A stretch of DNA of 64,000 nt, from the NCBI GenBank assembly GCA_963764715.1, contig CAVXTP010000010.1:160001-224000 (forward strand). Reading direction: 5' to 3'. Below the pieces are notes generated by a model, which saw nothing but the letters and a program-made list of their open reading frames with translations, had not been told where the DNA came from and searched no databases. This document shows, piece after piece, positions 4,353-34,940 of the stretch; position 1 is the first letter of the stretch, and the number at the start of each line of letters is the position of its first letter. The DNA is from an uncultured Acidobacteriota bacterium. GTDB taxonomy: Bacteria > Acidobacteriota > Thermoanaerobaculia > UBA5066 > Gp7-AA6. Made by a program: the position numbers and the translations under genes.

Positions 4353-4367
4353 CTCACCTGCCTCGTC

Positions 4368-10288: not shown

Positions 10289-10334
10289 TCTGCGGCGGAA
10301 GGTCTCGAGAATCGGGGCCGAATGCCCGAGAGTC

Positions 10335-11042: not shown

Positions 11043-11080
11043 GACCTCGTCCCCGGGCGATCGCAGCGCGGGCTGCGGCG

Positions 11081-14089: not shown

Positions 14090-14112
14090 GGATGGACTCG
14101 AGGACCGGGAGC

Positions 14113-14877: not shown

Positions 14878-15027
14878 AATTTCCTCCTTCACTTGTCGGG
14901 AACGTTCGGAATGTAGCACGGCGAATTGCGCGGCCTCACCTCTTGTCGAGGCACCTCGGCCGACGACGTTCCGCCGGATCGATTCGATTTGGTTCGTATG
15001 CGCGGATTCGGCCGACCGAACCGTCCG

Positions 15028-16325: not shown

Positions 16326-16351
16326 CGTGTGCTCCTTCGGCCGCCGCGGCC

Positions 16352-17437: not shown

Positions 17438-17507
17438 GGAGCCGTCCGTGCCGACCCGCCGGGGGTAGCCCCGCTCACGCTCCGCATGTCGGCTCCCTTC
17501 GACGCCG

Positions 17508-18465
17508 CTATTGCGCGTCGTCGGTGACGGTCCAGGTCTTGTCCGGGTTGTAGGCCTTGATCTTCGGGGCGAGCTTCGCCGTGTCCGGGCCGAGGTCCTT
17601 CTGGTAGACGACGCCGTCGTTGTTGACGACGAAGGTCTGGACGCCCGTGACGCCGTAGTTGGCGGGCCAGGCGATCGCGGCGAAGCCGCCGATCATCATT
17701 CCCTTGAAGACGTAGTCGCGGGCGCCCAGCCTCGCCGACGGGACCCTGGGCCGTCAGCGTGCGGAAGTAGTAGCCGTTGTACGGCTCGCTCTTCTTGGTG
17801 TAGCCGGCGGCGAGGGCCTTGGCGATCTCGTCGCCCATCGGACCCGCCGGATTGCCGGTCGTGTCTCGCCACGAGAGCCCGTCCTGGGTGCCGGGAGTGC
17901 TCACCCACTTCTGCGCGTACTGGCGAACGCCGCTGCCATCGCGCGGCTCCGAGGCGTACTCCCACTGCGCATCGACGTAGCCGCGCAGGAGCGCGATCGC
18001 GTCGAGCTCGTTGCCGCCGATGCGGCGAGCGAGAAGCTCCTGGCGCCCCATTTTCGCGTTGAAGCGCCACTTGCCGTTTTTCTCGACGATCGGAACCGGC
18101 ATCGGCCAGTCTTCGCTTCCGACGACCACGATCGCCAGCTTCGGGTCGGCGACGTCGAAGGTCACGTCCATCTTCTGGCGGGCGTGCTCGGCGAACTTCG
18201 CGAGGCTGTTCTTGTCGGCGACGGGGTCGCCGGAAGAGACGATGCCTTTGCCTTCGGCGCCGAAGATGGCGTCGACGGCCGCCATGTCGCCCGCCTCGGC
18301 CGCCTTGACCAGGGCATCGGCGGCCTGCTGCGGCGTGTCGAAGGCGCGCGGCGCCGCGGGCGGGTTGGCGGCACGGGCCGGAATGGCCCAGAACGCGCAG
18401 GCGATCGCCAGCGAAGCCGAGAGCCGAAAAGCGCGGTGAGAGTGACGCAGTTTGTTCATGTTCAT
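17508..18465 (-). CDS. DUF2950-family protein (frameshift ~17742)
   Basis: WPMPVPIV, RRIGGNE, PYNGYYF, then GFAAIAWPANYGVTGVQTF..VYQKDLG in the next frame. Confidence 0.85.
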
Positions 18466-18480
18466 TTTCGTTCCTCGCCG

Positions 18481-19743
18481 TTACCGCCGCCGCCCGCCGC
18501 CACCGCCGCCGCGCGACATTCCGCCCATGCTCGACGAGCCGCGCGAGCTCGACGACCGCGCGCTGCTCCCGCTGTAGGATCCTCCTCCTCCGCCGAACGC
18601 GGACGAGCCCCGGGAGCTCGAGGACGGCACGTTGCGGCTGCCGACCTGGCTCGACTTGCTTCCGCCGCGGTCGAAGCTGCGGAGCCGCCGCGGTCGAAGC
18701 TGCTCGCGCCCGCGCCCGAGCGGCTGCTCGCACCGCCGCGATCCATGCTCTGGGACTGGCGCTGGCTCGCCCCGGCCTGCCGGCTCGACGCCGAGTCGCC
18801 GCGCGCGTTGCCGCCGTACTTGCTGGCGGTCGCCTTGTCCTTGTACGGGCGCGCCGCCGCGCTGCTGCGAGTTGTGCTGCCAGTTGCTGTTGCCGCTGCG
18901 GTTGCTGACGTTGTTCTGACGGTTGCTGTTGTTGACGAAGTTGTTGCTGTTGTTGATGTTGATGGTGTTTCCGCCGCCGCCGTGCCAGCCGCAGCCCCAG
19001 CCCCAGCCGCCGCTGATTCCGACTCCGATGGCGACGCCCACACCGAACCCGATGAGCCCGGCGCCGGGCACGTAGGGCGGGTAGTACATCGGGTAATACG
19101 GGTAGACCGGCGGTCCCCAGATCACCGTCGGGTTGTAGGACGGAACGTAGACGACCTCGGTCGACGTGGGCTGGATCTCGATGACGGTCTTCGACTCCAC
19201 CGTAGTCGTTTCGACCTTCTGCTGTTCGGACGACGCGAGTTTGCCCGCGTCTTTCGCCTTCGCCCGCATGCGCTGGACGGCGTCCATCACTTCGCTCTGC
19301 TGCGCGAGGAACGCGTCGCCGAGATCCTGCGTCCACTTGATGTTCTCGGACAGGACCTTGAGCGCATCGGGCAGCACCACCAGGGCCTGGACGCTCGGGT
19401 CCCAGGGCTCCTTCTCGGCCGCCTTGACGAGCTCATCGCCCTTGAGTGTGCCGTTCTTGGCCAGCCACTGCTGCGCGGCGACGACGTCGATCGGGTACGT
19501 CGCGGCCACGAGGCACTGGGCGAGCAGAGGATCGGGGTAGAGCGCGATCGGCGCGACCAGCGAGTCGAGCTGGTCGGGCGTGAGTTTCGCGGATTCCGGC
19601 GCCTCCGTGGCGGGAGCGGCAGCCTGCGCATCCTGAGTCGGGACCGCGCCGGCCGGCGCGGCCATCAGCGCGCTGAGCGTTGCGACGAGCGCCACGCCGA
19701 AGGCGCCCGACAGCCTGGCCCGAAGCGACTGGAGAGTTGTCAC
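18481..19743 (-). CDS. DUF3300-family protein with Gly/Ser/Asn/Arg-rich tail (two compensating frameshifts, ~18848 and ~18680)
   Basis: LVAPIALYPDPLLAQ, WDPSVQAL, LGDAFLAQ, VYVPSYNP. Confidence 0.88.
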   Translation of the reverse strand: MTTLQSLRARLSGAFGVALVATLSALMAAPAGAVPTQDAQAAAPATEAPESAKLTPDQLDSLVAPIALYPDPLLAQCLVAATYPIDVVAAQQWLAKNGTLKGDELVKAAEKEPWDPSVQALVVLPDALKVLSENIKWTQDLGDAFLAQQSEVMDAVQRMRAKAKDAGKLASSEQQKVETTTVESKTVIEIQPTSTEVVYVPSYNPTVIWGPPVYPYYPMYYPPYVPGAGLIGFGVGVAIGVGISGGWGWGCGWHGGGGNTININNSNNFVNNSNRQNNVSNRSGNSNWQHNSQQRGGAPVQGQGDRQQVRRQRARRLGVEPAGRGEPAPVPEHGSRRCEQPLGRGREQLRPRRLRSFDRGGSKSSQVGSRNVPSSSSRGSSAFGGGGGSYSGSSARSSSSRGSSSMGGMSRGGGGGGRRR

Positions 19744-19801
19744 CGTGTCCTCCTCGTTTCCTGAACGCCTCATCCTATTCCGGGGACCGGTGGCGGCGCC
19801 A

Positions 19802-19819: not shown

Positions 19820-20007
19820 CGGACGGCCAGCCCTGCCTCCGACACGGCTCTTCGGCCATCCAGGGGAGTCGGACGGGGGCCTGCCCGAGACCCCCGTTCC
19901 CGACGCGAGGCCATGGCGCGAGAGCTCTGCCTTACCATCTCCACGATGCGAGCTCGAGACCTGCCGCCGTCGTGGCGGCCCCCGGCGGCCTGGCTCCGGG
20001 AGGCCTC

Positions 20008-21858
20008 GTGACGAGCTGGGTCACGGTCGTCTGGTCCGCCATCGCGTCGTCGTGCCTGACGCTCGCGCTCGTGCATGCCCTGATCGGTGTGCGGCAGCGG
20101 CAGCGGGCCAATTTCCTCTTCGCCGTCAACAGCCTCTCCGTCACGGCCATCGCGGCCGTCGAGCTCGCGCTGATGCGGGCGGCCAACCCGGTCGAGTTCG
20201 GCTTGCTCATGCGGTGGATGCACGTTCCCATCTTCGTTCTCGTCACGTCGCTCGTCCTCTTCGTGCGCGCGTTCTTTCGGGCGGGCTCCGCGGGGCTCGC
20301 TGCGGCGGCCATCGCCTCGAGGGCGGCGGCTCTCCTCGTCAACTTTCTCCGCCAGCCCAACCTGAACTTCGTCGAGATCACGAGCCTGCGCCGCGTCGCG
20401 TTCCTGGGAGAAGACGTCTCGGTGGCCGTGGGGACCGTCAGCCGCTGGACGCGGCTGGGCGAGCTCTCCTCGATCCTGCTGCTCGCCTTCCTGCTTTCGG
20501 CGGCGCTTTCGGTCTGGCGGCGCGGCGAGCGCGGACGGGCGGCGATCGTCGGCGGCAGCATGGTGCTGTTCGTTCTCGGGGCCGCAGGCCACGCGGCACT
20601 GGTCCATGCCGGGGTTGTGGTCTTCCCGTACATGTTCAGCGTCGCGTACCTCGGCGTCGTCGCGGCGATGGGACTACGAGTTGACGTCCGACGTCCTTCG
20701 CGCGACCGCCCTGGCGCGCGCGCTCCGCGAGAGCCAGGACGCCCTGCAAGAGAGCGACCGACAGCTGGCCGTGGCGGCCGACGCGGCGAAGCTGGGTTTC
20801 TGGGCGTGGGACCCGGGAACGGACGAACTGTGGATGACGGCCACGGGGCGGGTCGCTTCGCGGCTACTCTCCGAACGAGCGCCTCGACCTGTCCCGCCTT
20901 CTCTCCTCGGTCCACCCGGGGGATCGGGAGGACATCCGGCGATCCATCGAGTCCGCGGTCGACGATCGAAGGTCCTTCGAGCGTGAGTATCGGATCGTGC
21001 GCCCCGACGGGGAGATTCGCTGGGTCGCGTTCCGCGGCGCCGGCGAGCGCGACCCCGGGGACGGGCGGGCCCGCGTGCGGGGCGTCTCGATCGACGTCAC
21101 GTGGCAGAAGATGGCGGAGCTCGAATCGCAGAGGCGGCAGAACGAGGTCGCCCATCTCTCGCGGGTGACCGTGCTCGGCGAGCTGTCGGGATCGCTCGCC
21201 CACGAGATCAATCAGCCGCTGACGGCGATCCTGAGCAACACGGAAACCCTGCAGAACCTGCTGGGGCAGGAGGGGGCGTCTCTCCCCGAAGTCCAGGAGA
21301 TCCTGGCCGACATCGTCCACGAGGGCAGGCACGCGGCCGAGGTAATCCAACGACTCCGACTCCTCCTGAAGAAAGGCGACGTCCGCCCCGAGGCTCTCGC
21401 TCTGCCCGACCTCGTCGACGACGTCGTCCGCCTGGTCCGGGGCGACCTCGCCCACCAGGGCGTGACGTTCTCGGCGGAGCTCCCGGCCGACTTGCCCCGG
21501 GTTCGCGGAGACCGCGTCCAGATCGAACAGGTTCTCCTGAACCTCCTGACGAACGCCTGCGACGCCCTGGCGGACGCCGACCCGCGAGACCGGCGTCTCG
21601 TCCTCGGCGCGGCGGTCGCGGAAGGCGGCGAGGTTCGCGTCTCCGTCCGCGATCGGGGCCACGGGGATCGCGCCTTCGGACCTCGAGCGCGTCTTCGAGC
21701 CGTTCGTGACGACGAAGAGCCGCGGCATGGGCCTGGGACTGTCCGTCTGCCGCACGATCGTCACCGCCCACGGGGGAAGGCTGTGGGCGGTCAACAACGA
21801 CGACCGCGGTGCGACGTTTCATTTCACGCTTCCCGTCGCCGGCACAGCGCCACGATGA
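20008..21858 (+). CDS. Membrane PAS sensor histidine kinase (three frameshifts, ~20673, ~20851, ~21666)
   Basis: Multi-TM N-terminus, PAS/PAC (VHP..YRIVRPDGEIRW), SLAHEINQPL, QVLLNLLTNA, DRGHG, FEPFVTTK, GMGLGL. Confidence 0.85.
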
Positions 21859-22469
21859 CCGCGGAGCGCGTGTACGTGGTCGACGACGAGCCCGCCGTGC
21901 GCAAGGCCCTCTGGCGACTGCTTCGCTCCGCCGGAATCGAGGTCGAGGCTTTCGGGTCCGCGGAGGATTTCCTCGGCGCCCTGGAAGCGGAGCCTGCGGG
22001 CTGCGCGATCCTCGACGTCGCGATGCCGGGGCTGGACGGCCTCGCGCTGCAGGCGGCGCTCGCCTCCCGCGGCATCGACCTGCCGGTCCTGTTCCTGACC
22101 GGACGGGGCGACATCCCGATGTCCGTGCGGGCCATGAAGGCGGGGGCGGCCGACTTTCTGACGAAGCCCGTCGACGGCAAGGCCCTCGTCGCCGCGGTTC
22201 GGCGGGCGCTGGAAAAGGGCCGGTCTGCCGGGCAGGCGCGGCGGGAAGCCTCGGAGATCCGCCGGCGCCTCGCCTCCCTCACCCCGCGGCAGCGCGAAGT
22301 CCTGGAGGGGGTCGTCGCCGGGAAGCTCAACAAGCAGATTGCGGCCGATCTCGGGATCGCGGAGAAGACCGTCAAGATCCATCGCGGCGAGGTCATGTCG
22401 AAGATGGCGGCGGGCTCCGTCGCCGAGCTCGTTCGCTTCGCGCATCGGGCCAGCATCCGGCGCCCGTAG
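21855..22469 (+). CDS. FixJ/NodW-like response regulator (LuxR HTH)
   Basis: VYVVDDE, LDVAMP, FLTGRGDIPMSVRAMKAGA.DFLTKP, LTPRQREV..LNKQIA. Confidence 0.92.
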   Translation: MTAERVYVVDDEPAVRKALWRLLRSAGIEVEAFGSAEDFLGALEAEPAGCAILDVAMPGLDGLALQAALASRGIDLPVLFLTGRGDIPMSVRAMKAGAADFLTKPVDGKALVAAVRRALEKGRSAGQARREASEIRRRLASLTPRQREVLEGVVAGKLNKQIAADLGIAEKTVKIHRGEVMSKMAAGSVAELVRFAHRASIRRP

Positions 22470-22552: not shown

Positions 22553-22960
22553 GTGAACCCGAGAAGCTGGGAGTGCTTCGTCGCGGTCGTGGATGACGAC
22601 GACGCGGTGCGCCGCGCCCTCTCGCGCCTGGTTCGCTCGCTCGGGTTCGAGGCCGAAGCGTTCCCGTCGGGCAAGGAATTCCTGGCCGCGCTCGCGACGC
22701 GGCGCCCCGATTGCGTCGTGCTCGATCTGCACATGCCGGAAGTCAACGGCTTCGACGTTCAGGCGAGGATGGCCGAGGCGGGCCTGCACGTCCCGGTCAT
22801 CGTGATCACGGGCCACGATTCTCCCGAAGCGCGGGCGAGGGCGCTCGCCGGGGGGGCCTCGGCCTATCTGTGCAAACCGTTGGACGGGTTGGCGCTCCGG
22901 GAGGCGATTCGCGCCGCCGTCGTGGGCAGCGCGACGACGAACGGGAGCGCAAAACAATGA
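22553..22960 (+). CDS. Single-domain response regulator receiver
   Basis: VVDDD, LDLHMP, VITGH, YLCKP. Confidence 0.85.
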   Translation: MNPRSWECFVAVVDDDDAVRRALSRLVRSLGFEAEAFPSGKEFLAALATRRPDCVVLDLHMPEVNGFDVQARMAEAGLHVPVIVITGHDSPEARARALAGGASAYLCKPLDGLALREAIRAAVVGSATTNGSAKQ

Positions 22961-22973
22961 GGAGGAGACCGTC

Positions 22974-24524
22974 ATGATCGCTCGTGGGGAATCCTGGCGC
23001 CGCCGGTTGGCGGCGGCATCGCTGGCGGCGACGATCGTGGGGGCGGCGGCGTCCGGCGCGCTCGGCCAGGAGCTCAAGGGCGCGATCTCGGGGCGCGTCG
23101 TGGACGAAGTCGGCGCGGCCGTCGCCGGCGCCACGGTGACGGCCCGAAACCTCGCGACCGGGTTTCGCCAGTCGGCGGTCTCGGACGCGTCGGGCGCCTT
23201 CCGCATCGAGGCGCTTCCGGCGGGCTCCTACGACGTCACTTCCGAGGCCTCGGGGTTCAGGACCGGGCTGTCGACGGGCGTGGTCGTCCACGCCTCCGAG
23301 TTCACGAACGTGGCCTTCGCTCTGAAGGCCGTCGCCTTCGTGGCGCAGGAGCCGCAGGGACAGGCCGGCGCGCCGCCCCCGGATCCCATGAAGCAGGGGC
23401 CGCGCATGCAGATCTACGGCTTCGCGATGACGGACCTGATCTACGACATCGACCAGGTGAATCCGGACTGGTTCGACGTCGAGCGCCCGTCGAAGCTCCC
23501 GTCGTTTCCGAACGAGTTCGGCGACAACGGCAACTTCTGGGCGAGCGTGCGGCAGACGCGCTTCGGCGTCCGCGGCTGGCTGCCGACGTCGATGGGAGAA
23601 GTGAAGACGGAGTTCGAGTTCGACCTCTTCGGCGTCGGCTCCGACGCCGGCCAGACGACGATCCGACTGCGCCAGGCCTGGGGCGAGCTCGACGCGTTCC
23701 TCATCGGCCAGACGAACAGCGTCTTCATGGACGGGGACGTCTTCCCGAACACGGTCGAGTACTGGGGGCCCGACGGGATGGTGTTCTTCCGCAACGTCCA
23801 GCTGCGATGGGCGCCCATCCAGGGCGACACGCGCCTGTACATCGCACTCGAGCGGCCCGGGGCCACGGGCGATCAGGGAAAGTACTCCGACCGCATCGAG
23901 CTCTCGGGCATCAAGCCGCACTTCCCGTACCCGGACTTCACGGCCCAGTTCCGGACCGGGAGCGACTGGGGGCACGTGCAGCTCGCGGGGATCGTCCGCT
24001 ACATCGGCTGGACCGACACCCTGGCCGACGAGGTCGATCTTTCGGACCACGCCATCGGCTGGGGCCTCAGCGCGAGCTCCGTCATCAAGTTCGGGAAGAC
24101 GGGGAGCCTGCGCCTCCAGGCCACCTACGGCGAGGGCATCGAGAACTACATGAACGACGCGCCCGTCGACGTCGGGATCCAGGCCAACCCGGGCAATCCG
24201 CTTCAGCCGGTCACCGGCAAGGCGCTGCCGATCTTCGGGATGATGGCTTACTACGATTTCAACTGGAGCGACTGCTTCTCGACGGCGATCGGCTATTCCC
24301 GTCTCGACATCGACAACAGCAACGGACAGCTTCCGACCGCCTTCAAGAGCGGGCAGTACGCATCGACCAACATCCTCTATTACCCCGTCCAGAACGTCAT
24401 GACCGGGCTCGAGTTCCAGTGGGGCCGCCGGCAGAACTTCGGCGACGACTTCGCCGTGAACGACTTCCGGATCCAGTTCTCGGCGCAGTACAAGTTCTCG
24501 TTCGATCTGGGAGGGAAGAAGTGA
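22974..24524 (+). CDS. DcaP-family outer-membrane porin with N-terminal carboxypeptidase-regulatory-like domain
   Basis: GAISGRVVDEVGAAVAGATVTARN, SVRQTRFG, RLRQAWGE, GQT.SVFMD, NDFRIQFS. Confidence 0.8.
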   Translation: MIARGESWRRRLAAASLAATIVGAAASGALGQELKGAISGRVVDEVGAAVAGATVTARNLATGFRQSAVSDASGAFRIEALPAGSYDVTSEASGFRTGLSTGVVVHASEFTNVAFALKAVAFVAQEPQGQAGAPPPDPMKQGPRMQIYGFAMTDLIYDIDQVNPDWFDVERPSKLPSFPNEFGDNGNFWASVRQTRFGVRGWLPTSMGEVKTEFEFDLFGVGSDAGQTTIRLRQAWGELDAFLIGQTNSVFMDGDVFPNTVEYWGPDGMVFFRNVQLRWAPIQGDTRLYIALERPGATGDQGKYSDRIELSGIKPHFPYPDFTAQFRTGSDWGHVQLAGIVRYIGWTDTLADEVDLSDHAIGWGLSASSVIKFGKTGSLRLQATYGEGIENYMNDAPVDVGIQANPGNPLQPVTGKALPIFGMMAYYDFNWSDCFSTAIGYSRLDIDNSNGQLPTAFKSGQYASTNILYYPVQNVMTGLEFQWGRRQNFGDDFAVNDFRIQFSAQYKFSFDLGGKK

Positions 24525-24571
24525 AGCGAGCCATTCCGACACCCGATGTCATTCCGATGGGGAGGTAACCC

Positions 24572-25987
24572 GTGAGCACCGTATCCAAGACCAAGACCCG
24601 TACCGAGCACGACCTGCTCGGAGACCTCGCCGTTCCCGCCGACGCCTACTACGGCGTCCAGACCGCGCGGGCCCTCGAGAATTTCCACATCTCGGGTGTC
24701 GAGCTGCGTCTCTATCCCAACCTGATCAAGGCCTTCGCCATGGTCAAGCTCGCCGCCGCGCGAGCCAACTACGACTGCAAGCAATTCTCCAGGGAGATCC
24801 TGAAGGGGATGGAGGGCGCCTGCAAGGAGCTGATCGACGGCAAGCTCCACGACGAGTTCCGTCTCGACGTCTTCCAGGGCGGCGCGGGCACCTCGACCAA
24901 CATGAACGCCAACGAGGTCATCGCCAACCGGGCGCTGGAATTGATGGGCCACAAGAAGGGCGAGTACAAGTATTGCGACCCGCACGACCACGTCAACGGC
25001 TCCCAGTCCACCAACGACGCCTACCCGACGTCGCTCCACATCGGCATGGCCCTCGGCAACATCGAGCTCGTCGCAGCGATGAAGGAGCTCATCGCGTCCT
25101 TCCGCCGCAAGGGGAAGGAATTCTCGAAGATCCTCAAGATGGGGCGCACGCAGCTCCAGGACGCCGTGCCGATGACGCTCGGCCAGGAGTTCGAGGCCTT
25201 CGCCGCGACGCTTTCGGGCGAGGTCCTGGCCCTCGAGCGCATTCAAAACGTGCTCTGCAAGACCAACATGGGGGCGACCGCGATCGGGACGGGCCTGAAC
25301 GCCCCGGCAGGCTACGCCGAGAAGTGCACGGAGCACCTGGCGAAGATCACGGGGCTGCCGATCCACCTGGCCGAAGACCTGATCGAGGCCACGCAGGACA
25401 CGCAACCTTTCGTCCTCTACTCGTCCTGCATGAAGAGCCTGGCGATCAAGCTCTCGAAGGTCTGCAACGACCTCCGGCTCCTCTCCTCGGGACCGCGCTG
25501 CGGACTCCGCGAGATCAATCTCCCGGCCAAGCAGCCGGGCTCCTCGATCATGCCCGGGAAGGTCAATCCCGTGATCCCGGAGGTCGTCAACATGGTCTGC
25601 TTCCGGGTCATCGGCAGCGACCTGACGGTGTCGATGTCCGCCGAGGCCGGCCAGCTCCAGTTGAACGTCTTCGAGCCGGTCATCGCCGCGTGCATCTTCG
25701 AAGCACAGACGATGTTCATCAACGCGGCGCGCACCCTGCGCGTGCACTGCGTGGACGGCATCACCGCCAACCCCGATGTCTGCAAGCACTACGTCGAGTA
25801 CTCGATCGGCACGGTCACGGCCCTGAACCCGGTCATCGGGTACGACCGCTCGACCGAGCTCGCGGCGGAGGCGATGAAGACGGGACGGGGCATTCTCGAG
25901 CTGATCCGGGAGAAGAAGGTCCTGACGGAGGATCAGATCGCGAAGGTCTTCAACCCGGCGGCGATGGCGGGGGCACACCGGAAGTGA
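24572..25987 (+). CDS. aspA: Aspartate ammonia-lyase
   Basis: YYGVQT.RA.ENF, QGGAGTSTNMNANEV, GRTQLQDAVP, GSSIMPGKVNPVIPE. Confidence 0.93.
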   Translation: MSTVSKTKTRTEHDLLGDLAVPADAYYGVQTARALENFHISGVELRLYPNLIKAFAMVKLAAARANYDCKQFSREILKGMEGACKELIDGKLHDEFRLDVFQGGAGTSTNMNANEVIANRALELMGHKKGEYKYCDPHDHVNGSQSTNDAYPTSLHIGMALGNIELVAAMKELIASFRRKGKEFSKILKMGRTQLQDAVPMTLGQEFEAFAATLSGEVLALERIQNVLCKTNMGATAIGTGLNAPAGYAEKCTEHLAKITGLPIHLAEDLIEATQDTQPFVLYSSCMKSLAIKLSKVCNDLRLLSSGPRCGLREINLPAKQPGSSIMPGKVNPVIPEVVNMVCFRVIGSDLTVSMSAEAGQLQLNVFEPVIAACIFEAQTMFINAARTLRVHCVDGITANPDVCKHYVEYSIGTVTALNPVIGYDRSTELAAEAMKTGRGILELIREKKVLTEDQIAKVFNPAAMAGAHRK

Positions 25988-26514
25988 AGTCCGTTGCGCC
26001 TCTTCGCGCGGTCCTGCTGGCATCGGCCATCGGCGTGCTCGCCCTGCCGGCGCGGGGCCAGCAGGCGGCGTCCGACTGGCGTCCGTTCGCGGCGACGTGG
26101 ACCCTCTCGGGGCAGAGGTTCCTCCTGCCGACGGAGGGCGAGCGCCCCGCCTCCATCGTCACCCTTTCGGGTCCCCTGACCATCACGAAGGGGGAGGGGC
26201 TCGGCCGCGGGCTGCTCAGCCAGGTGATCGGCTTCGACGACGGCGGGGCGGTTCTCGCCGGCCGGGCCGTCTTCACGGACGAGCGCGGCGACAGGATCTT
26301 CTGCACCATCCAGGCCGAGCCGATCGGGACCGGCCGCCGGGCCACGGCGACGATCACCGGCGGCACGGGGCGCTTCGCGGGGCTGGAAGGGAGCTTCTCG
26401 TTTGCCTGGCTGTACGTCGTGGACCAGGAGAGCGGCGAGGTCAGCCTGCGCTCCGTCGACATCGAGGGGCGAACCAGACGCGGAGCCTCGGCGCGCGGCG
26501 GGAGCGGGCCATGA
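25984..26514 (+). CDS. Hypothetical secreted beta-rich protein
   Basis: GTGA overlap with aspA; signal peptide; ITGGTGRFAGLEG. Confidence 0.65.
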   Translation: MKSVAPLRAVLLASAIGVLALPARGQQAASDWRPFAATWTLSGQRFLLPTEGERPASIVTLSGPLTITKGEGLGRGLLSQVIGFDDGGAVLAGRAVFTDERGDRIFCTIQAEPIGTGRRATATITGGTGRFAGLEGSFSFAWLYVVDQESGEVSLRSVDIEGRTRRGASARGGSGP

Positions 26515-27918
26515 CGGCGGGTCCGAAGACGCTCCTCGCCCGCCTCGGGGTGGTCGCCCTCGGCGTGGTCATCTGGTTCTGGCCGGTGCCCGAGGGGCTC
26601 ACCCCTCCGGCCTGGCACCTCTTCGCGATCTTCGCCGCCACGATCGCCTCCGTCATCGCCGGCGCATTCCCCATCCTGACGGCCTCGGTCCTCGCGGTCG
26701 CGATCTCCGTTCTTTCCGGGCTCCTGACCCCCGCGAAGGCGTATGCGGGGTTTGCGAACGGGACGATCCTGCTCATCGTGGTCGCTTTTCTCGTGGCGCG
26801 GGCGATCGTGAAGTGCGGCCTCGGCCAGCGCCTCGGCCACCTGGTCGTGCGGCTCTTCGGGCGCTCGACGCTCGGCCTCGGCTACAGCATCTTCTTCTTC
26901 GACGCCGTGATCGCGCCCGCGTTTCCGAGCGACACGGCGCGCTCCGGCGTGATCTACCCCCTCGCCCTCTCGCTCGCGGAAGGCGGCGGCTCGAAGCCCG
27001 ACGAGGCCACGCGCAAGAAGATGGGGGCCTACCTTATGTTCTGCGGGATGGCGACCCTGTCCCTCTCCTCGGCGCTGTGGCTGACCGCGATGGCGGGCAA
27101 TCCGCTCGGAGCCGAGATCGGCAAGACGATGGGCTTCCAGGTCTCGTTCGGCTCGTGGCTGCTGGCCGCCTCGGTGCCGACCCTCCTCGCGCTCGCGCTG
27201 CTGCCGCTGCTCATCTACAAGGTCTTCCCGCCCGAGGTGAAGGCGACGCCCGAGGCTCCCGCCGCGGCGCGCAAGGCGCTGGCCGCGATGGGCCCGCTGA
27301 GCCTGCAGGAGAAGATCGTGGCGGCGACCTTCGTCGTGATGGTCGTCCTGTGGGGGCTCGCCGGGACGCTGAAACTCGACCTGACGGCGGTGGCGTTTCT
27401 CGGTCTCGGAGTGCTCCTCGCGACGGGCGCCCTGACGTTGAAGGACATCGGACAGCAGGGCGACGTGCTCGGGACCTTCATCTGGTTCTCGATCCTGTAC
27501 ACCCTGAGCGGCCAGCTGAACGCCATGGGCTTCATGGGCTATCTCGGGCAGAGACTCGGCGGCGCGCTCGGCGGGCTGCCGGTTCCCGCGGCCTACGCCA
27601 TTCTCGTGGTCGCCTACGTCCTTCTCCACTACCTGTTCGTCAGCCAGACGGCGCACGTTCTCGCTCTCTTCGGCGTGTTCCTCGGAATCGGCTCCCAGCT
27701 CGGCATCCCGCTGCCGGTGCTCGGCTTACGCCCTGCTCTTCTCCACGAGCTACTTGTCGACGATGACGCCGCAGGCCTCGAGCGCGAACGTGCTCGTCGT
27801 CGGGAGCGGCTACCTCACGCAGGGCGAGCTGTATCGCCTCGGCACGATCACGACGGCCTTCAACATCCTGCTGCTCCTTCTCGTGGGGACGCCCTGGCTG
27901 ATGTTCGTGGCGCGGTGA
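26511..27918 (+). CDS. DASS-family dicarboxylate transporter (frameshift ~27725)
   Basis: PVPEGL..AWHLFAIF, PSDTARSG, LTAMAGNP, HYLFVSQTAH. Confidence 0.87.
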
Positions 27919-27931
27919 CGGTGGAGGCGGC

Positions 27932-29608
27932 ATGACGTACCTGACGAATGCCCTTCGCAACAACCCCGAGCTCGCCATCTTCCTGACGCTCGCCGTGGGT
28001 TTCGTGTTCGGGCGCCTGCGGATCGGCAGCTTCCGGCTCGGCAACGTCGTCGGGACGCTGCTCGCCGGCGTGCTCATCGGACAGCTCGACATCCACGTCG
28101 ATCCGATCGTCAAGCTCGTCTTCTTCGACCTCTTCCTCTTCGCGACCGGCTACAAGGTGGGCCCGCAGTTCTTCCGTGGGCTCGGCAAGAGCGCCCTGCC
28201 GCAGGTCGCCGTGACGTTGGTCCTGTGCATCACGAGCCTCGTGGTCACGGTCGCGGCGGCGAAGCTCTTCCACTACGACTGCGGGACCGCGGCGGGACTG
28301 ATGGCCGGCGCCTTCACGGAGTCGACCGTCATCGGCACGGCGGGAGAGACGATCAACCATCTCGACCTGCCGGCGGAGGAGAAGGCCCGGCTTCTGAACA
28401 ACATCCCCGTGGCCTACGCGGTCTCGTACCTCGTCGGCACCGGGTTCGTCGTGTGGTTCCTGTCGAGCCTCGCGCCGAAGCTCCTCAAGGTGGACCTGAA
28501 GGCCGAGAGCCGCAAGCTCGAGAAGGAGCTCTCGGGCGAATCGGAGTCGAGGTCCTCCAAGGAGTCCGCCTATCGCGAGTGGGACCTGCGCACCTACCGG
28601 ATCGACGACGCGGCCTGGGCGGATCGCACCGTGGCCGATCTCGAGAAGTCGTTCTCGCCCGCGCGGGCCTTCGTCGAGCGGATCCGCCGCGGGGCGGAGA
28701 TCCTCGACGCCTCGCCGGAGATGGCGCTGGCCCGCGGCGATTCGGTCGCGATCGCCGCCCCCAGGAGGGTGCTCGCGGGCGGGGTCTCGATCGGCGTGGA
28801 GATCGAGGACAAGGCGCTGCTCGACTTTCCGCTCGTCGCGCTGGACATCGTCCTGACCAATCGGAGCCTGGTCGACCTCAGCCTCAGGGAGCTCGCCTCA
28901 CTCCACGGGCGCGGCGTGGCGCTGATGCAACTCGTGCGCGGGGGAGAGGAGATCCCGTTCGTGCCGTCGACCGTGGTCAACCGGGGTGACATCCTGCGGC
29001 TCTCCGGCGCGACCCGCGACGTCGAGCGCGTCGGCGCGGCCCTGGGCTACATCGAGCGGCCCTCGCACGAGACCGACGTCGTCTTCGTCGGCCTCGGCAT
29101 CCTCGTGGGCGGGCTCGTCGGGCTCCTCTCGGTCTCGGTGGGCGGGTTACCGCTTTCCCTGACGGCGAGCGGCGGCGCCCTCATCATGGGGCTCGTCTTC
29201 GGGTGGCTGCGCTCGGTGCGCCCGACCTTCGGCCGGATCCCGGAGCCGGCGCTCTGGGTGTTCGACACGGTCGGCCTGGCCGTCTTCATCGGCGTGGTCG
29301 GCCTGACCGCGGGCCCGAGCTTCGTCGCGGGCCTGAAGCAGACCGGGCTGAGCCTGCTCTTCGTCGGCTTCGTCGTCGCGGTCACGCCGCACATGGCGGC
29401 GCTCGTCTTCGGGCACAAGGTCCTCAAGATGAATCCGGTCATTCTGCTGGGGGCCTCGGCCGGGGCCGGGACGGTCACGGCCGCCCTGCGCTCGATCCAG
29501 GACGAGGCTCACAGCAAGCTCCCCGTGCTCGGTTACACGGTGCCCTACGCCATCGGGAACATCCTCCTGACGGCCTGGGGCCCGGTCATCGTTTTTCTGA
29601 CGAAGTAG
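27932..29608 (+). CDS. aspT: Aspartate:alanine antiporter (AAE family, TrkA-C domains)
   Basis: PELAIFLTLA, FLFATGYKVGPQFF, AYAVSY, GYTVPYAIGN. Confidence 0.87.
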   Translation: MTYLTNALRNNPELAIFLTLAVGFVFGRLRIGSFRLGNVVGTLLAGVLIGQLDIHVDPIVKLVFFDLFLFATGYKVGPQFFRGLGKSALPQVAVTLVLCITSLVVTVAAAKLFHYDCGTAAGLMAGAFTESTVIGTAGETINHLDLPAEEKARLLNNIPVAYAVSYLVGTGFVVWFLSSLAPKLLKVDLKAESRKLEKELSGESESRSSKESAYREWDLRTYRIDDAAWADRTVADLEKSFSPARAFVERIRRGAEILDASPEMALARGDSVAIAAPRRVLAGGVSIGVEIEDKALLDFPLVALDIVLTNRSLVDLSLRELASLHGRGVALMQLVRGGEEIPFVPSTVVNRGDILRLSGATRDVERVGAALGYIERPSHETDVVFVGLGILVGGLVGLLSVSVGGLPLSLTASGGALIMGLVFGWLRSVRPTFGRIPEPALWVFDTVGLAVFIGVVGLTAGPSFVAGLKQTGLSLLFVGFVVAVTPHMAALVFGHKVLKMNPVILLGASAGAGTVTAALRSIQDEAHSKLPVLGYTVPYAIGNILLTAWGPVIVFLTK

Positions 29609-29617
29609 GAGGTTTCC

Positions 29618-30704
29618 ATGTTCCACCGCAAGACGTTTCTTCCCGCCCTGGTGACTGCATTGTCGTTGGCGGCAACGGCGACGGCGCAGACCGGCGCGAC
29701 CGCGGCGAAAGGCCCTCTTCCCGAACATCGTGGTCCTGGCGACCGGCGGCACGATCGCCGGAGCCGCCGCGAGCGACGTCCAGGCCGGCTATACGTCGGG
29801 CCAGGTCGGCGTCGAGCAGCTCCTGGCCGCCGTGCCGCAGGCGAAGAAGCTCGCGAACCTCCGCGGCGAGCAGATCTCGAACATCGGCTCGCAGGACATG
29901 AACGACGAGGTCTGGTTCAAGCTCGCGCGGCGAATCAACGAGCTCACCGCGATGAAGGACGTGGACGGAATCGTCATCACGCACGGAACCGACACGATCG
30001 AGGAGACGGCCTACTTTCTCAATCTCGTGACCAGGTCGCGCAAACCGGTTGTGCTGACGGCGGCGATGCGGCCGTCCACCGCCCTGTCGGCCGACGGCCC
30101 GCTCAACTTCTACAACGCCGTGGCGGTGGCCGCGAACAAGGACGCGGCGGGCCGCGGCGTGCTCGTGGTCGTCAACGACTGGATCCACGGCGCCTCTTCG
30201 CTCACCAAGGCGAGCACGACCGCGGTGCAGACCTTCCTTTCGCCGCTGCGCGGCTTGATCGGCACCGTGGCGTACGGGGAGGCCGAGTTCTACCGCGGCC
30301 CGGTCGGCCGCAACACGGTCGACTCGGAGTTCTCGCTCGATGGCCTGACGAGCCTGCCGCGCGTGGACATCGTCATGGCGTACGAGAACATGGACGGGGC
30401 CCTGATCGATTGCTCGGCGGCGGCGGGAGCGAAAGGCATCGTGATCGCGGGGGTGGGCAACGGGAACATGACGGCGGTCGCGCTGAACGCCCTCGGTGCC
30501 CAGGCGAAGAAGGGGATCGTCTGTGTGCGCTCCTCGCGGGTGGCGACGGGACGGGTGGGGCGCAACGTCGAGGTCGACGACGACAAGTACGGGTTCGTCG
30601 CCTCCCTGGAGCTGAATCCCCAGAAATCGCGGGTTCTCCTCCGGCTGGCGCTGACGAAGACGAAGGACCCCAAACAGATTCAGCGGTATTTCGACCAGTA
30701 CTGA
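29618..30704 (+). CDS. ansB: Type II (periplasmic) L-asparaginase (frameshift ~29721)
   Basis: Signal peptide; LATGGTIAG, IGSQDM, HGTDTIEET, GVGNGN, LNPQK. Confidence 0.88.
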
Positions 30705-32221
30705 TGCGGCCCTGGACCCCGGCGGTCGTCGCGGCCCTCTCGTGGGCCCTCGGGCCGGCGTCGGTGCCGGCGCAAGCCCGTGCCGGCGTGTTGGAGGGAC
30801 GCGTGCTCGATGAGCGCCGGGCCCCTGTGGCCAACGCGACGATCGCCGCTCGCCATCTCGCGACCGGATTTCGCCAGTCGGCGGTTTCCGATGCGTCGGG
30901 CCTCTTCCGTGTCGGCCCTCTTCCGGAGGGTTTGTACGACGTCACGGCCGAGGCGCCGGGGTACGGCACGGGCCTGGCGAGCGGCGTCGCCACGGCGGCC
31001 GCCGGGAGCGTGCGCGTCGACTTCGTGCTGAAGGCGTCGCTTCCGGAAGGCCGCGTGGCGCCCGCAGCGGCGCCTTCCGAAAAGCCGGCGCCGAGGCGGG
31101 GGCCCCGGCTCCAGATCTACGGATACGCCGCCCTCAACCTGATCAACGACTTCGACCAGATGAACCCGGACTGGTACGACATGGAGAGGCCCTCGAAGCT
31201 TCCGGCCTTTCCAAACGAGTTCGGCGAAAACGGCAACTTCTGGGCGAGCGTGCGCCAGACGCGCTTCGGCGTCCGTTCGTGGATCCCGACGGGGCTCGGC
31301 GAGGTCAGGACGGAGTTCGAGTTCGACCTTTCCGGTGTCGCCCCCGACGCCGGGGAGACGACGTTTCACCTGCGTCAGGCCTGGGGCGAGCTCGGCCCGT
31401 TTCTCGCCGGCCAGACCGTCAGCGTCTTCATGGACATGGACATCTTTCCGAGAATCGTGGAGTACTTCGGCCCCGACGGGATGGTCTTCTATCGCAACGT
31501 TCAGCTGCGCTGGACGCCCATCCGGGGGGAGAAGCGCCTGATCTTCGCCCTCGAACGCCCCGGAGCCAACGGCGACACCGGCGAGTTTGCGGGCCGGGTC
31601 GAGCTCGAGGGAGTCCAGAGCCGCTTCCCGTATCCGGACCTCACGGCGCAATACCACTACGGCGACGACTGGGGGCACGTCCAGCTCGCCGGGATCGTGC
31701 GCTACATCGGGTGGACCGACTCCGTCCGCGACCAGTACGACCTGGCGGGGCACGCCATCGGCTGGGGCTTCAACCTGAGCTCCGTCCTCAAGGTGTCGCA
31801 GACCGGCAATCTCCGGCTCGAGGCCTCGTACGGGGAAGGGATCGAGACTTACATGCGGGACGCGCCCGTGGACGTCGCGGCGCAGGCCAATCCGGGTCAC
31901 CCGAGCCAGCCGGTCGTCGGAAAGGCGCTGCCGGTCTTTGGCATGGCCGCGTTCTACGATTTCAACTGGAGCGAGAAATTCTCGAGCGCGATCGGCTACT
32001 CCCGGATCGACATCGAGAACAGCGACGATCAGCTCCCGACCGCCTTCCGGAGCGGCCAGTACGCCCTGGCCAATCTCCTCTACTATCCCGTCCGGAACGT
32101 GATGACGGGACTCGAATTTCAGTGGGGCCGCCGGGAGAACTTTTCCGACGGTTTCGCGGTCAACGACTTCCGAATTCAGTTCTCGGCGAGATACAACTTC
32201 TCTTTCGAGGCCGGCGAGTGA
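30704..32221 (+). CDS. Second DcaP-family porin with carboxypeptidase-regulatory-like domain
   Basis: Clear paralog of 22974-24524 (ERPSKLP.FPNEFG.NGNFWASVRQTRFG). Confidence 0.8.
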   Translation: MRPWTPAVVAALSWALGPASVPAQARAGVLEGRVLDERRAPVANATIAARHLATGFRQSAVSDASGLFRVGPLPEGLYDVTAEAPGYGTGLASGVATAAAGSVRVDFVLKASLPEGRVAPAAAPSEKPAPRRGPRLQIYGYAALNLINDFDQMNPDWYDMERPSKLPAFPNEFGENGNFWASVRQTRFGVRSWIPTGLGEVRTEFEFDLSGVAPDAGETTFHLRQAWGELGPFLAGQTVSVFMDMDIFPRIVEYFGPDGMVFYRNVQLRWTPIRGEKRLIFALERPGANGDTGEFAGRVELEGVQSRFPYPDLTAQYHYGDDWGHVQLAGIVRYIGWTDSVRDQYDLAGHAIGWGFNLSSVLKVSQTGNLRLEASYGEGIETYMRDAPVDVAAQANPGHPSQPVVGKALPVFGMAAFYDFNWSEKFSSAIGYSRIDIENSDDQLPTAFRSGQYALANLLYYPVRNVMTGLEFQWGRRENFSDGFAVNDFRIQFSARYNFSFEAGE

Positions 32222-32267
32222 CGTGGTGCGGGGCGCCGATGAGCGTCGTGGACGGAAGGAGCAGGGC

Positions 32268-33227
32268 ATGAAAGATTCCGGAAAGAAGGCCCCCGGGTCC
32301 AAAGTCGAGACGCCGGGGCTGCCCCGGCTCGACGATCTGGTCGAACGGGCGCAGAAGCTGGCGCGCCGATATCGGGTCCGGGACGGCAAGGGCTTCCGGC
32401 TGGAGGACGTCGACCCGGGAGACACCGCCTGGCTCAAGGCCGAGGACAAGCCCGCCGCCAAGGAGGCGCTGCAGCAGGGCATCGATCTGCTCGCCGAGCT
32501 GCAGGACATGCTGTACGCCCAGGACCGCTGGGCCGTCCTCCTGATCTTCCAGGCGATGGATGCCGCCGGAAAGGACGGCGCCATCAAGCACGTCATGTCC
32601 GGCATCAACCCGCAGGGCTGCCAGGTCTCGTCCTTCAAGGCCCCGTCGGCGGAAGACCTCGACCACGACTTCCTGTGGCGCTGCTCCAAGAACCTCCCGG
32701 AGCGCGGAAGGATCGGGATCTTCAACCGTTCCTACTACGAAGAGGTTCTCGTGGTCCGCGTCCACAAGGAGCTCCTCGAAAAGCAGAAGCTGCCCCGGCA
32801 GCGGATCTCCGGGGACATCTGGGACGAGCGCTTCCGGGACATCCGCGGCTGGGAGCGATACCTCGACGCCAACGGCGTGCTCGTGCGGAAGTTCTTCCTG
32901 CACGTGTCCCGCAAGGAGCAGAAGCGGCGCTTCCTCGAGCGCATCGAGAATCCCGAGAAGAACTGGAAGTTCTCCCCGACCGATGCGCAGGAGCGCGGGT
33001 TCTGGAAGGACTACATGCGCGCCTACGAGGACCTGATCCGCCACACGGCCACGAAGCGCTCGCCCTGGTACGTCGTGCCGGCGGACAACAAGTGGTTCAC
33101 GCGGATCGTGGTCGCGGCCGCCGTCATCGACACGCTGTCGTCGATGGGGCTGAAGTACCCGAAGGTCGACGAGGCGAAGCTCCGCGAGCTGCAGAAGACG
33201 AAGGCGAAGCTGCTCGCCGAGAAGTGA
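32268..33227 (+). CDS. ppk2: Polyphosphate kinase 2 family protein
   Basis: FQAMDAAGKDGAIKHV Walker A, FNRSYYEEVL, PWYVVPADNKW. Confidence 0.92.
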   Translation: MKDSGKKAPGSKVETPGLPRLDDLVERAQKLARRYRVRDGKGFRLEDVDPGDTAWLKAEDKPAAKEALQQGIDLLAELQDMLYAQDRWAVLLIFQAMDAAGKDGAIKHVMSGINPQGCQVSSFKAPSAEDLDHDFLWRCSKNLPERGRIGIFNRSYYEEVLVVRVHKELLEKQKLPRQRISGDIWDERFRDIRGWERYLDANGVLVRKFFLHVSRKEQKRRFLERIENPEKNWKFSPTDAQERGFWKDYMRAYEDLIRHTATKRSPWYVVPADNKWFTRIVVAAAVIDTLSSMGLKYPKVDEAKLRELQKTKAKLLAEK

Positions 33228-33239: not shown

Positions 33240-34940
33240 TCAGGCGCGGGGCGAAGCCGCGGCGGGTTTCTGGTACCGCTCCACGGCCAGCTCGACGCTG
33301 AAGACCATCCGCTCGCGGCCCAGGATCTCCCCGAGCGCCGAGCGCTGGATCATCGCCAGGACCGCGGGGTTCAGCGCGACGAGCCACAGGGCGACGCCCC
33401 GCTCGCGGCTGCGCTTCTCGCCCTCCACGAGCATCTTGAGAGCCGTGTACTCGAGGTCGAAGACGGCGCTCATGTCGAGCGCCACGACCTTCGCCCCGGC
33501 TTCGTCGGCGAGCGCACGGATCTTCTGCCCGATCCGTTCGGCGTTGGCGAAGAAGATCCGGCCCTCCGGCCGCAGAAGGAGGAGGCCCGGAAAGAATTCG
33601 TCCTCGGGATGCTCCTTCGTGCGCGGCCGGAAGACGTTGGTTCCGGGCTTGCGCCCCAGGACGTGGACCGGCGGATCCGCCACCTGCTGGGCGAGGGCGA
33701 TGAGCGACAGCACGATCGCGACGAGGATCCCCTTGAGCGTTCCGAGGACCATCACGCCGGCAAACGCGGCCAGCGCCCAGACGAACTCCGTCCGCCGGAT
33801 GCGGAGGATCGACCGGAACTCCGCCGGCTTGATCAGGCCGACCGAGTAGACGACGACGACCGCGGCGAGCGTCGCCTGGGGCATGAGGCCCATCCACGGG
33901 GCCAGGAAGAACATCGTCGCGAGCGTGCCCGCGGCCGTGACGATCTCGGCGAGCTGCGTGCGGGCGCCCGCGTTGCGGTTGACCGCCGTCTGGCTCGTCC
34001 CGCCGCCCGAAGGCATCGCGCCCAGAAAGGCGCTGCCGGCGTTCGCGAAGCCCGTCGCGAGAAGCTCCCGGTTGGCCCGGGGAGGGGCCTCGTTGCTCCG
34101 CGCGAAGGCCCGCCCGGCGGCGACGGTCTCGGTGAAGCTCATCAGCGCGATGCCGATCGCGCCCGACCAGAGCCCGGCGACGAGCGAGAAGTCCGGAAGG
34201 GTGACCGACGGAAATCCCCTGGGGATGTGGCCTACCAGCTCGACGCCCCGGTCTGCGAGCCCGAGCAGTCCCGCGGCGGCGATCCCGGCCGCCACCACGA
34301 CGAGGGGCGCCGGAGCCCGGGGAAGAAACCGCGCGAGACCGATCAGGATCGCCATCATCGCGCCCGCGACCGCGAGCGTCGGCAGCGACGTCTGCGGGAT
34401 GTGTTGGATGGTCGAACCCACGTTGCGGAGGAACGTCGACCGCGGAATGTGGAATCCGAGGAGCTTGGGGAGCTGGTCGAGGATGATGACGACTCCGATG
34501 CCCGCCTTGAAGCCGACGAGCACGGGCTCGGAGATGAAGTCGGCGACGAACCCCAGCCTCAGGACCGAGGCCGCGAGGAGGATCGCCCCGACGAGCAGCG
34601 TCAGCGTGGCGAGAGCCGAGAGCAGCGCGGCGGAATCGCCCGCCGGGGCCGTGGCGGCGAGGATGGTCCCGGTCAGGATCGCCATCGTCGTGGTGGTGCT
34701 GACGCTCAGAACGTTCGACGAGCCGAGAAAAGCGTAAATCAACATCGGGAGAAACGCCGTGTAGAGGCCGACCTGGACCGGCAGCCCGGCAATCGTGGCG
34801 TAGGCCATCGCCTTGGGGATGACCACGGCCGCGGCGGTCAGCCCGGCGACGACGTCGAGCCTCAGCCACTCCTTCCGATATCCGCCGAGCCAGGCGGGCA
34901 ACCAGGAGCCGGTCTGCGTCGGACGGGCGGGCGCGTCCAT
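33240..34940 (-). CDS. SulP-family anion transporter with STAS domain
   Basis: DVVAGLT..IPKAMAYA.IAGLP..GLY, NRELLATG.AN, IFFANA. Confidence 0.92.
   Translation of the reverse strand: MDAPARPTQTGSWLPAWLGGYRKEWLRLDVVAGLTAAAVVIPKAMAYATIAGLPVQVGLYTAFLPMLIYAFLGSSNVLSVSTTTTMAILTGTILAATAPAGDSAALLSALATLTLLVGAILLAASVLRLGFVADFISEPVLVGFKAGIGVVIILDQLPKLLGFHIPRSTFLRNVGSTIQHIPQTSLPTLAVAGAMMAILIGLARFLPRAPAPLVVVAAGIAAAGLLGLADRGVELVGHIPRGFPSVTLPDFSLVAGLWSGAIGIALMSFTETVAAGRAFARSNEAPPRANRELLATGFANAGSAFLGAMPSGGGTSQTAVNRNAGARTQLAEIVTAAGTLATMFFLAPWMGLMPQATLAAVVVVYSVGLIKPAEFRSILRIRRTEFVWALAAFAGVMVLGTLKGILVAIVLSLIALAQQVADPPVHVLGRKPGTNVFRPRTKEHPEDEFFPGLLLLRPEGRIFFANAERIGQKIRALADEAGAKVVALDMSAVFDLEYTALKMLVEGEKRSRERGVALWLVALNPAVLAMIQRSALGEILGRERMVFSVELAVERYQKPAAASPRA

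Follow-up and report, generated by a model that had tools for sequence, protein, structure and literature searches.

We analysed a stretch of 64,000 nucleotides (the window) of contig CAVXTP010000010.1, positions 160,001 to 224,000, from an uncultured Acidobacteriota bacterium. Between positions 22553 and 33227 it holds a closely packed run of genes that encode two DcaP-like porins, an aspartase (AspA), a periplasmic asparaginase (AnsB) and two carriers of the DASS and AspT families. An initial annotation, made from the sequence alone, had listed nine genes here, and all nine are present, closely packed on the + strand. Genes in the window, which has a G+C content of about 68%, were picked by third-position GC bias together with domain matches; the Pfam scans covered 13 candidate open reading frames (ORFs) in the run and 50 elsewhere in the window, and NCBIfam models were applied with their curated cutoffs. 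Together with the two regulatory genes that precede them, the genes are:

19999-21858, + strand: sensor histidine kinase, with a membrane 7TM-like N-terminus, PAS_3, HisKA and HATPase_c; in four frame pieces
21855-22469 (start approximate), + strand: FixJ/NarL-type response regulator, with Pfam Response_reg and GerE/LuxR helix-turn-helix domains
22553-22960, + strand: stand-alone receiver of 135 aa (Pfam Response_reg, 92.7 bits; start taken from the sequence)
22974-24524, + strand: outer-membrane porin 1, with signal peptide, CarboxypepD_reg (PF13620, 74.8 bits) and DcaP-like barrel (PF19577, 69.9 bits)
24572-25987, + strand: cytoplasmic aspartate ammonia-lyase AspA, with Lyase_1 and FumaraseC_C (NF008909, 707 bits, cutoff 510)
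25984-26514, + strand: sec176, secreted 176-aa protein of an uncharacterised family (recognised as an ORF with 4-nt overlaps)
26511-27918, + strand: DASS dicarboxylate carrier, exchanger subgroup by sequence (PF00939, 325.8 bits; TIGR00785, 286 bits)
27932-29608, + strand: AAEx/AspT-like carrier, 558 aa, intact (TIGR03802, 641.7 bits, cutoff 546.95)
29618-30704, + strand: type II periplasmic L-asparaginase AnsB, with asparaginase N and C domains (TIGR00520, 435.8 bits, cutoff 314.3)
30704-32221, + strand: outer-membrane porin 2, a paralogue of porin 1 (PF13620 and PF19577; start taken from the sequence)
32269-33227, + strand: PPK2-family polyphosphate kinase (PF03976, 226 bits; TIGR03709, 382 bits, cutoff 247)

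The junctions within the run range from -4 to 47 nt: neighbouring genes either overlap, by 4 nt or 1 nt, or are separated by 9-47 nt. The start of sec176 overlaps the aspA stop by 4 nt, the sec176 stop overlaps the DASS start by another 4 nt, and the start of porin 2 shares one base with the ansB stop. For PPK2, ATG 32269 lies behind a Shine-Dalgarno site, the longest possible start being GTG 32223. A promoter/terminator scan found no terminator-like site on the + strand and a single promoter-like site, on the - strand, with the proviso that promoters of Acidobacteria may deviate from the consensus. An FNR/CRP-type box pattern gave 8 matches against 4.4 expected, none of them in the regulatory region of the operon, and neither Rfam at the gathering threshold nor a tRNA scan returned an RNA element in the whole window.

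Among the enzymes, AspA scores 656 against TIGR00839, slightly under the cutoff of 681, with the NCBIfam fumC models scoring lower; its relatives are 82-93% identical. AnsB aligns with TIGR00520 from profile position 29. Its signal peptide is read from ATG 29618, which has a Shine-Dalgarno site, and the mature enzyme follows from 29709 in a different frame; 41 of 44 AnsB orthologues carry a signal-peptide-like extension in frame. We considered GTG 29730 as an alternative start, giving a cytoplasmic enzyme, and rejected it, as it would delete a conserved N-terminal strand, and the signal peptide and Shine-Dalgarno site lie just upstream in the other frame. The two porins, both with signal peptides, are 67% identical to one another and match PF19577 with 69.9 and 70.0 bits (cutoff 27), over part of the profile in porin 1 (110-248 of 410) and over positions 112-410 in porin 2. 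PPK2 reaches 409.5 bits with the ADP-polyphosphate phosphotransferase equivalog, below its cutoff of 450, and the FixJ-type regulator 219 bits with NF006900 (FixJ), under a cutoff of 255.

Conservation of the gene run in related loci

To place the run in context, species-representative genomes were scanned with the AspT-like protein, and the best 80 of 362 confirmed relatives, labelled L001-L080, were surveyed. In all 80 the AspT-like protein is at least 69% identical to that of the window; 73 loci bear the label Acidobacteriota. The window proteins were mapped onto the loci by tblastn; separately, 1072 locus ORFs were clustered and the cluster representatives annotated. Enough flanking sequence to judge partner genes was available in 63 loci. 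The core of aspA, DASS, aspT and ansB recurs in 31 of these 63, so the gene run is not a chance assembly. At least one of aspA and ansB is present in 43 and AsdA, the aspartate 4-decarboxylase also known as AspD, in six; 14 have none of aspA, ansB, AsdA or DASS.

The arrangement is conserved as well. DASS lies immediately upstream of the AspT-like gene in 32 of the 71 loci with enough flank, ansB immediately downstream in 39 of 73 (and immediately upstream in 5 more), and aspA no more than 4.2 kb upstream in 33 of 67. The core falls into two modules, aspA-sec176-DASS and aspT-ansB, whose order can be swapped (for example in L022, L026, L027 and L063), and the core recurs in loci with the labels Thermoanaerobaculia, Vicinamibacteria, Polarisedimenticolia, Holophagae and Gemmatimonadota. 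The stand-alone receiver has an orthologue in only 5 of the 80 loci.

Other genes join the cluster in subsets of the relatives. Glutaminase A (NF009020, 412 bits, cutoff 395) does so in 20 of the 80 loci, with a signal peptide read in L028, the sole example inspected. Genes of the sdhC/sdhA type follow directly after ansB and before the second porin in L006, L007, L008, L009 and L013; in L029 they lie about 5 kb downstream of aspT, adjoining aspA, and not after ansB. In all six loci they encode a type-B succinate dehydrogenase/fumarate reductase, with a cytochrome b558 subunit and a flavoprotein. A secreted protein of about 830 aa, with a Pro/Ala-rich N-terminus, a Gly/Tyr-rich C-terminal tail and no Pfam or NCBIfam match, occurs in 11 loci (for example L028, 1371-3863) and sits between DASS and the AspT-like gene in L018, L054 and L060. 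In each of the four nearest relatives, L001-L004, the gene after porin 2 encodes a PPK2; the position is kept and the paralogue differs, identity to the window protein being 51-85% in L001 and L003 and 29% in L002 and L004 (about 14100-15070).

The wider surroundings recur too. Within 10 kb of the AspT-like gene, the 80 loci contain VIT (16), SulP (23), PPK2 (18), a GH63/MGH1-like hydrolase (18), DUF3300 (11), DUF2950 (10) and CAX (8), and recurrent neighbours also include a K+ channel and a protein of the alpha-amylase family, in several acidobacterial classes and in varying order and orientation. In the window, the neighbour stretches on the - strand are 15672-19773 and 33240-34940. By rough estimate, the recurrence of VIT, CAX, SulP and PPK2 is far above chance for a handful of copies per genome, although, with loci that are phylogenetically related, this excess does not amount to a formal test. 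The recurrent neighbours look like a conserved super-neighbourhood.

The two carriers and the secreted barrel protein

The AspT-like carrier has the architecture of its family, two Asp-Al_Ex membrane repeats (PF06826, 243 bits) flanking two TrkA_C domains (PF02080) in 558 aa, and matches the solved AspT (PDB 8xw5) in two aligned stretches with an E-value of 2e-71 (HMMER). We compared the L-Asp-binding and gate residues of AspT, as given in the residue list of PMC12462496. In the aspartate pocket, T130, S132, Y167, L431 and T496 are identical and S498 is replaced by Thr; the listed gate residues F66, F69, F434, G439 and Y524 are all identical. Because these pocket and gate positions are kept, and are invariant in 69 of 69 orthologues, aspartate is well supported as a putative substrate. 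The tip of hairpin 1 carries Glu in 69 of 69 clade members, Ile in the 4 AsdA-adjacent paralogues and Gln (T-Q-S) in the solved AspT; we dropped this Glu (T-E-S) as a subfamily marker, T-E-S being the second commonest tip among 91 full-length cluster representatives (16, vs 29 with T-Q-S). Relatives of the carrier number in the thousands. The best 120 are 75-100% identical, and six of them, from Thermoanaerobaculia, Polarisedimenticolia and one MAG labelled Acidithiobacillales, are named 'aspartate-alanine antiporter' by NCBI.

The seed criterion of TIGR03802 is presumably that AspT is encoded beside aspartate 4-decarboxylase. The initial annotation had noted the absence of this enzyme from the window, and indeed tblastn with acidobacterial queries (E<=1e-5) and Pfam scans of the 50 ORFs elsewhere in the window found no AsdA, glutaminase, Orn/Lys/Arg decarboxylase or Sdh/Frd in the 64 kb. 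The six surveyed loci that do have AsdA (L032, L034, L035, L047, L049 and L071, at about 2000-11700 in each) share one order: a porin, an 825-aa decarboxylase of the OKR_DC type, an AspT paralogue, AsdA (NF006755, 749.7 bits) and then the orthologue of the window's carrier. The adjoining paralogue is 40% identical and scores 606.8 bits with TIGR03802. CAX and VIT come next in four of the six, and in L071 sec176-DASS lies upstream of the decarboxylase.

A tree of 73 of the 90 ORFs of the AspT cluster (520-640 aa, split genes excluded) places the 69 orthologues in one clade, in which the window carrier groups with L001-L003. Four AsdA-adjacent orthologues form a single nested clade (SH-aLRT 96), with L038 and L072, which have neither partner, as nearest outgroups, followed by the aspA/ansB-linked L028 and L044. 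Because the AsdA-adjacent orthologues nest inside the aspA/ansB-linked ones, linkage to aspA/ansB is the rule in the surveyed clade, whereas the AsdA link seems to have been added once, at a later stage, together with a carrier of its own.

The second carrier was compared with known structures through the intact orthologue from L001. Its best PDB chains were DiT1 (9mcr, 1.5e-85), DiT2.1 (9mcu) and 6wtw/6wu1, with E-values from 1.5e-85 to 1.8e-74, and no chains beyond these were returned at E<=1e-3. We take all of them, the chloroplast DiT1 and DiT2.1 as well as 6wtw/6wu1 (LaINDY), to be dicarboxylate exchangers and not Na+ symporters. By sequence, the DASS carrier is thus closest to exchanger-type DASS proteins; its own substrates are putative. 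It differs from them in that its gene is translationally coupled to that of the secreted barrel protein sec176, a coupling of which we know no counterpart in exchanger-type DASS systems. The overlap of the sec176 stop with the start of DASS is shared by the window and six relatives, and sec176 is present in 32 of the 80 loci. In L009 (7926-9986), sec176 and DASS share one open frame with no intervening stop, which may be a natural fusion or another indel. An N-terminal extension of DASS from 26097 was tried and discarded: the coding sequence there belongs to sec176, a separate secreted protein in another frame.

For sec176 itself there is neither a Pfam match nor a sequence match in the PDB. 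Its AlphaFold2 model is a confidently predicted 8-stranded beta-barrel (pLDDT 80.9), for which the best Foldseek match in the PDB is the weak one to the dirigent protein 6ooc (E 9e-4, TM 0.46-0.49), and the predicted fold is dirigent/AOC-like. Of 8000 scored sequences, at least 1515 are homologues at E<=1e-5; the best 120 are without Pfam domains, and the source names, where given, are all 'hypothetical protein'.

A proposed route for asparagine and aspartate, and its rivals

What we infer for substrates, transport direction, division of labour between the carriers and physiological role is an operon for the utilisation of asparagine and aspartate by periplasmic deamidation, to which we assign a probability of roughly 60%. 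The two porins would admit asparagine and aspartate; AnsB would convert asparagine to aspartate and NH4+ in the periplasm; the AspT-like carrier would import the aspartate, and cytoplasmic AspA would split it into fumarate and NH4+. The DASS exchanger, always encoded with aspA, may trade a C4-dicarboxylate (fumarate, succinate or malate) for external aspartate, so that DASS-aspA would correspond to the aspA-dcuA pair of E. coli. The cell would gain nitrogen and, for carbon, the C4 skeleton, which in relatives with sdh/frd genes inside the operon may also feed fumarate respiration. The pathway logic of the initial annotation is retained here, given the signal peptides of both porins, the periplasmic location of the asparaginase, the cytoplasmic one of the aspartase and the aspartate/dicarboxylate type of both carriers.

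Several points weigh against this proposal. It does not explain why two carriers are kept side by side, and the activities of its members are predictions from sequence. The score of the AspT-like carrier with the AspT equivalog would normally predict Asp:Ala exchange, but no alanine source is encoded here. In relatives, genes for glutaminase, AsdA and a decarboxylase of the Orn/Lys/Arg type adjoin that of the carrier, and VIT, CAX, SulP, PPK2 and a K+ channel are often nearby, a set that would also suit a role in acid or ion stress. The survey represents the best 80 of 362 relatives and a single clade, whose members are phylogenetically non-independent. Finally, DASS, ansB and the sensor kinase are frameshifted as written, and the operon could be non-functional in its source organism.

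DASS has a 1-base insertion near 27725 (an extra base relative to L001, L002 and L004), after which its last 64 codons continue in the next frame at 83-89% identity to relatives, and ansB has one near 29709-29713 (relative to L001, L003 and L004). In the kinase, mapping from the L002 orthologue, an intact 622-aa ORF, gives three +1 shifts between pieces at 19999-20703, 20675-20851, 20841-21683 and 21664-21849 in frames 1/2/3/1. The Pfam matches are divided as well: PAS_3, HisKA and positions 1-48 of HATPase_c fall in the ORF beginning at 20838, and HATPase_c 47-110 in the ORF 21550-21858. With a probable +1 break near 17740 in the DUF2950 gene (17434-18465), this makes six +1-type breaks within 17.4-33.2 kb, as might be expected if the insertions were real and ansB, DASS and the sensor kinase pseudogenes of a decaying operon. 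We regard such decay as quite improbable. Every shift has the same direction, and the broken genes retain strong third-position GC bias and 83-95% amino-acid identity on both flanks and show no other lesions. Some related contigs have splits of this kind in other genes (ansB in L001; aspT in L004, L009, L015 and L071), a pattern that suggests consensus errors. Because neither coding signal nor identity drops across the breaks, and related contigs are similarly affected, the breaks are probably consensus or assembly errors. Breaks outside the run, including the split of the Pyr_redox_2/rhodanese gene at 4368-6064 into two ORFs, suggest that the sequence has a general 1-base insertion problem.

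A canonical AspT/AsdA system, in which the carrier would exchange aspartate for alanine to generate proton-motive force, asdA would lie elsewhere in the genome and the vicinity of aspA and ansB would reflect only a shared substrate, could draw on the TIGR03802 score above cutoff, the conserved aspartate pocket and the orthologues, 70-72% identical, that lie directly downstream of AsdA in the six loci named above. We consider it very improbable: asdA is absent from the 64 kb and, in 57 of the 63 relatives that can be judged, from the surrounding 10 kb, the AsdA-adjacent orthologues (four rows of the tree) are one nested clade inside the aspA/ansB-linked ones, and each AsdA locus has its own 40%-identical AspT paralogue beside AsdA. 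The suggestion in the initial annotation that AspT may have another counter-substrate here fits the survey, with aspA and/or ansB as partners in 43 of 63 loci vs AsdA in 6 of 63.

The initial annotation had favoured acid resistance or pH homeostasis as the primary role, with ammonia released from asparagine and aspartate (to which relatives would add glutamine) in periplasm and cytoplasm, aspartate exchanged for fumarate, and ion transporters and PPK2 in support. This is conceivable, as aspartase is reported to aid the acid survival of Yersinia pseudotuberculosis (PMC4773443), and the legend of Fig. 8 in PMC10634366 names pH homeostasis among the roles of the Actinobacillus succinogenes cluster. 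Related loci contain glutaminase A (20/80) or AsdA, an OKR_DC decarboxylase and a second AspT (6/80), and 37 of the 80 loci, or 30 of the 48 with full flanks, have VIT, CAX, SulP or PPK2 no more than 10 kb away. Glutaminase together with an antiporter constitutes an acid-resistance system in E. coli. What the window shares with such amino-acid-dependent systems, in Yersinia and E. coli, is the presence of ammonia-releasing enzymes and an amino-acid exchanger in one locus, and its relatives carry glutaminase A or decarboxylases beside the same carrier.

The window itself, however, has no decarboxylase, glutaminase or proton-consuming enzyme (tblastn with acidobacterial AsdA, OKR_DC and GlsA), and no acid-linked regulator was recognised in it, the kinase having only a 7TM-like region and a PAS domain as candidate sensory parts. 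Above the carboxyl pKa values, the conversions of Asn to Asp- and NH4+ and of Asp- to fumarate2- and NH4+ are proton-neutral. The overall reaction, Asn to fumarate2- and 2 NH4+, takes up no protons above about pH 4.5, and base would arise only through further metabolism of fumarate or in a very acid medium; the release of two NH3 proposed as an acid defence is therefore not in itself base production. Furthermore, the dedicated porins, and the sdh/frd genes inside the operons of relatives, point to substrate throughput for growth. Because CAX, VIT and SulP lie on the opposite strand and RND more than 8 kb away, these genes cannot be co-transcribed with the run, and the co-regulation proposed for them cannot arise in that way. 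No regulator, motif or neighbour in the window links the operon to pH, and we hold a primary role in acid protection to be rather unlikely.

A broader proposal would combine both themes. The acidobacterial 'AspT' clade would serve as importer for periplasmic deamidation (by AnsB, in some loci joined by a secreted glutaminase), working with the DiT-like DASS and the barrel protein and not as an Asp:Ala antiporter. The module would be part of a conserved acidobacterial neighbourhood (CAX, VIT, SulP, PPK2, a K+ channel, DUF3300/DUF2950 and, in some loci, AsdA with a decarboxylase of the Orn/Lys/Arg type), the whole forming a pH/ion-homeostasis regulon for which acidic amino acids and the corresponding amides supply the fuel. 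We mention it as a speculative and, on balance, unlikely extension of the utilisation operon.

Elsewhere in the window, a sulfur-related run on the - strand (58-7452) encodes three or four rhodanese-domain proteins, a fusion of a CoA-disulfide-reductase-like Pyr_redox_2 domain with rhodanese, DUF202, and proteins of ZIP-like and cupin type. Two SLH-domain proteins are also encoded on the - strand, at 14113-14919 and at 61100-64000, the latter of more than 966 aa and running past the window end.

Comparison with known systems and implications

Among the closest published counterparts are the ansB-aspA-dcuA cluster of A. succinogenes (Asuc_0140-0142) and the aspA-dcuA pair of E. coli, for which asparagine and aspartate are described as nitrogen source and fumarate precursor (PMC10634366). 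With the A. succinogenes cluster, the window has in common a periplasmic asparaginase II, a cytoplasmic aspartase and, if its carriers act as their relatives suggest, an exchanger of aspartate and C4-dicarboxylates. It has the AspT-like and exchanger-type DASS carriers instead of a Dcu carrier, no Dcu-family protein being found among the Pfam-scanned ORFs (13 in the run and 50 elsewhere in the window), and adds the two porins, sec176, PPK2 and, along with a two-component system, a further receiver. With the AspT-AspD system of Tetragenococcus halophilus it shares a carrier of the same family and architecture, scoring above the TIGR03802 cutoff and with pocket and gates conserved. This carrier is, however, only moderately identical to the solved AspT and has T-E-S in place of T-Q-S at the hairpin-1 tip, and the window lacks the decarboxylase; its partner enzymes deaminate and yield no alanine.

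The logic of periplasmic conversion of asparagine or glutamine, followed by import of the acidic amino acid, is also that of Campylobacter and Helicobacter, where AnsB and GGT act before uptake by DcuA/B, DctA or Peb (in C. jejuni, AnsB/GGT and then Dcu/Peb; PMC4178425). Their genes are scattered and do not form one operon, their transporter families differ, and they use GGT, whereas the window's relatives have glutaminase A as the putative periplasmic glutamine-converting enzyme. Among Gram-positive bacteria, B. subtilis ansAB is an asparagine catabolic operon. Another is ansR-ansA2-aspA2-ansP of Corynebacterium glutamicum, an asparagine-induced operon of asparaginase, aspartase and permease (PMC9145765). 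Unlike the window, Gram-positive operons of this type have a cytoplasmic asparaginase, an asparagine permease and a repressor, and lack porins and exchangers. Published clusters of ansB, aspA and a transporter are read first as systems for asparagine/aspartate utilisation or fumarate respiration (PMC10634366, PMC9145765). Searches of the literature on AspT with aspartase or asparaginase, and on Acidobacteria with these enzymes, found no description of the operon. The pathway as such is already known; novelty lies in the families of its carriers, the pairing of porins, the presence of a secreted barrel protein and an 'AspT' clade whose habitual link is to aspartase and asparaginase and not to AsdA.

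The name 'aspartate-alanine antiporter' implies an energy cycle driven by decarboxylation. Because in Acidobacteriota the carrier usually occurs with aspartase, a periplasmic asparaginase and a DASS exchanger, this name probably misleads for an entire clade from abundant, mostly uncultured bacteria. If our reading is true, the operon would for the first time give a functional context to the sec176 family, uncharacterised secreted proteins that number more than 1500. Likewise, these bacteria would possess a defined route for scavenging asparagine and aspartate, and glutamine and glutamate in relatives, as a source of nitrogen, carbon or electron acceptor, and the DASS and AspT-like carriers would represent a second, non-Dcu solution to the exchange of aspartate for C4-dicarboxylates.

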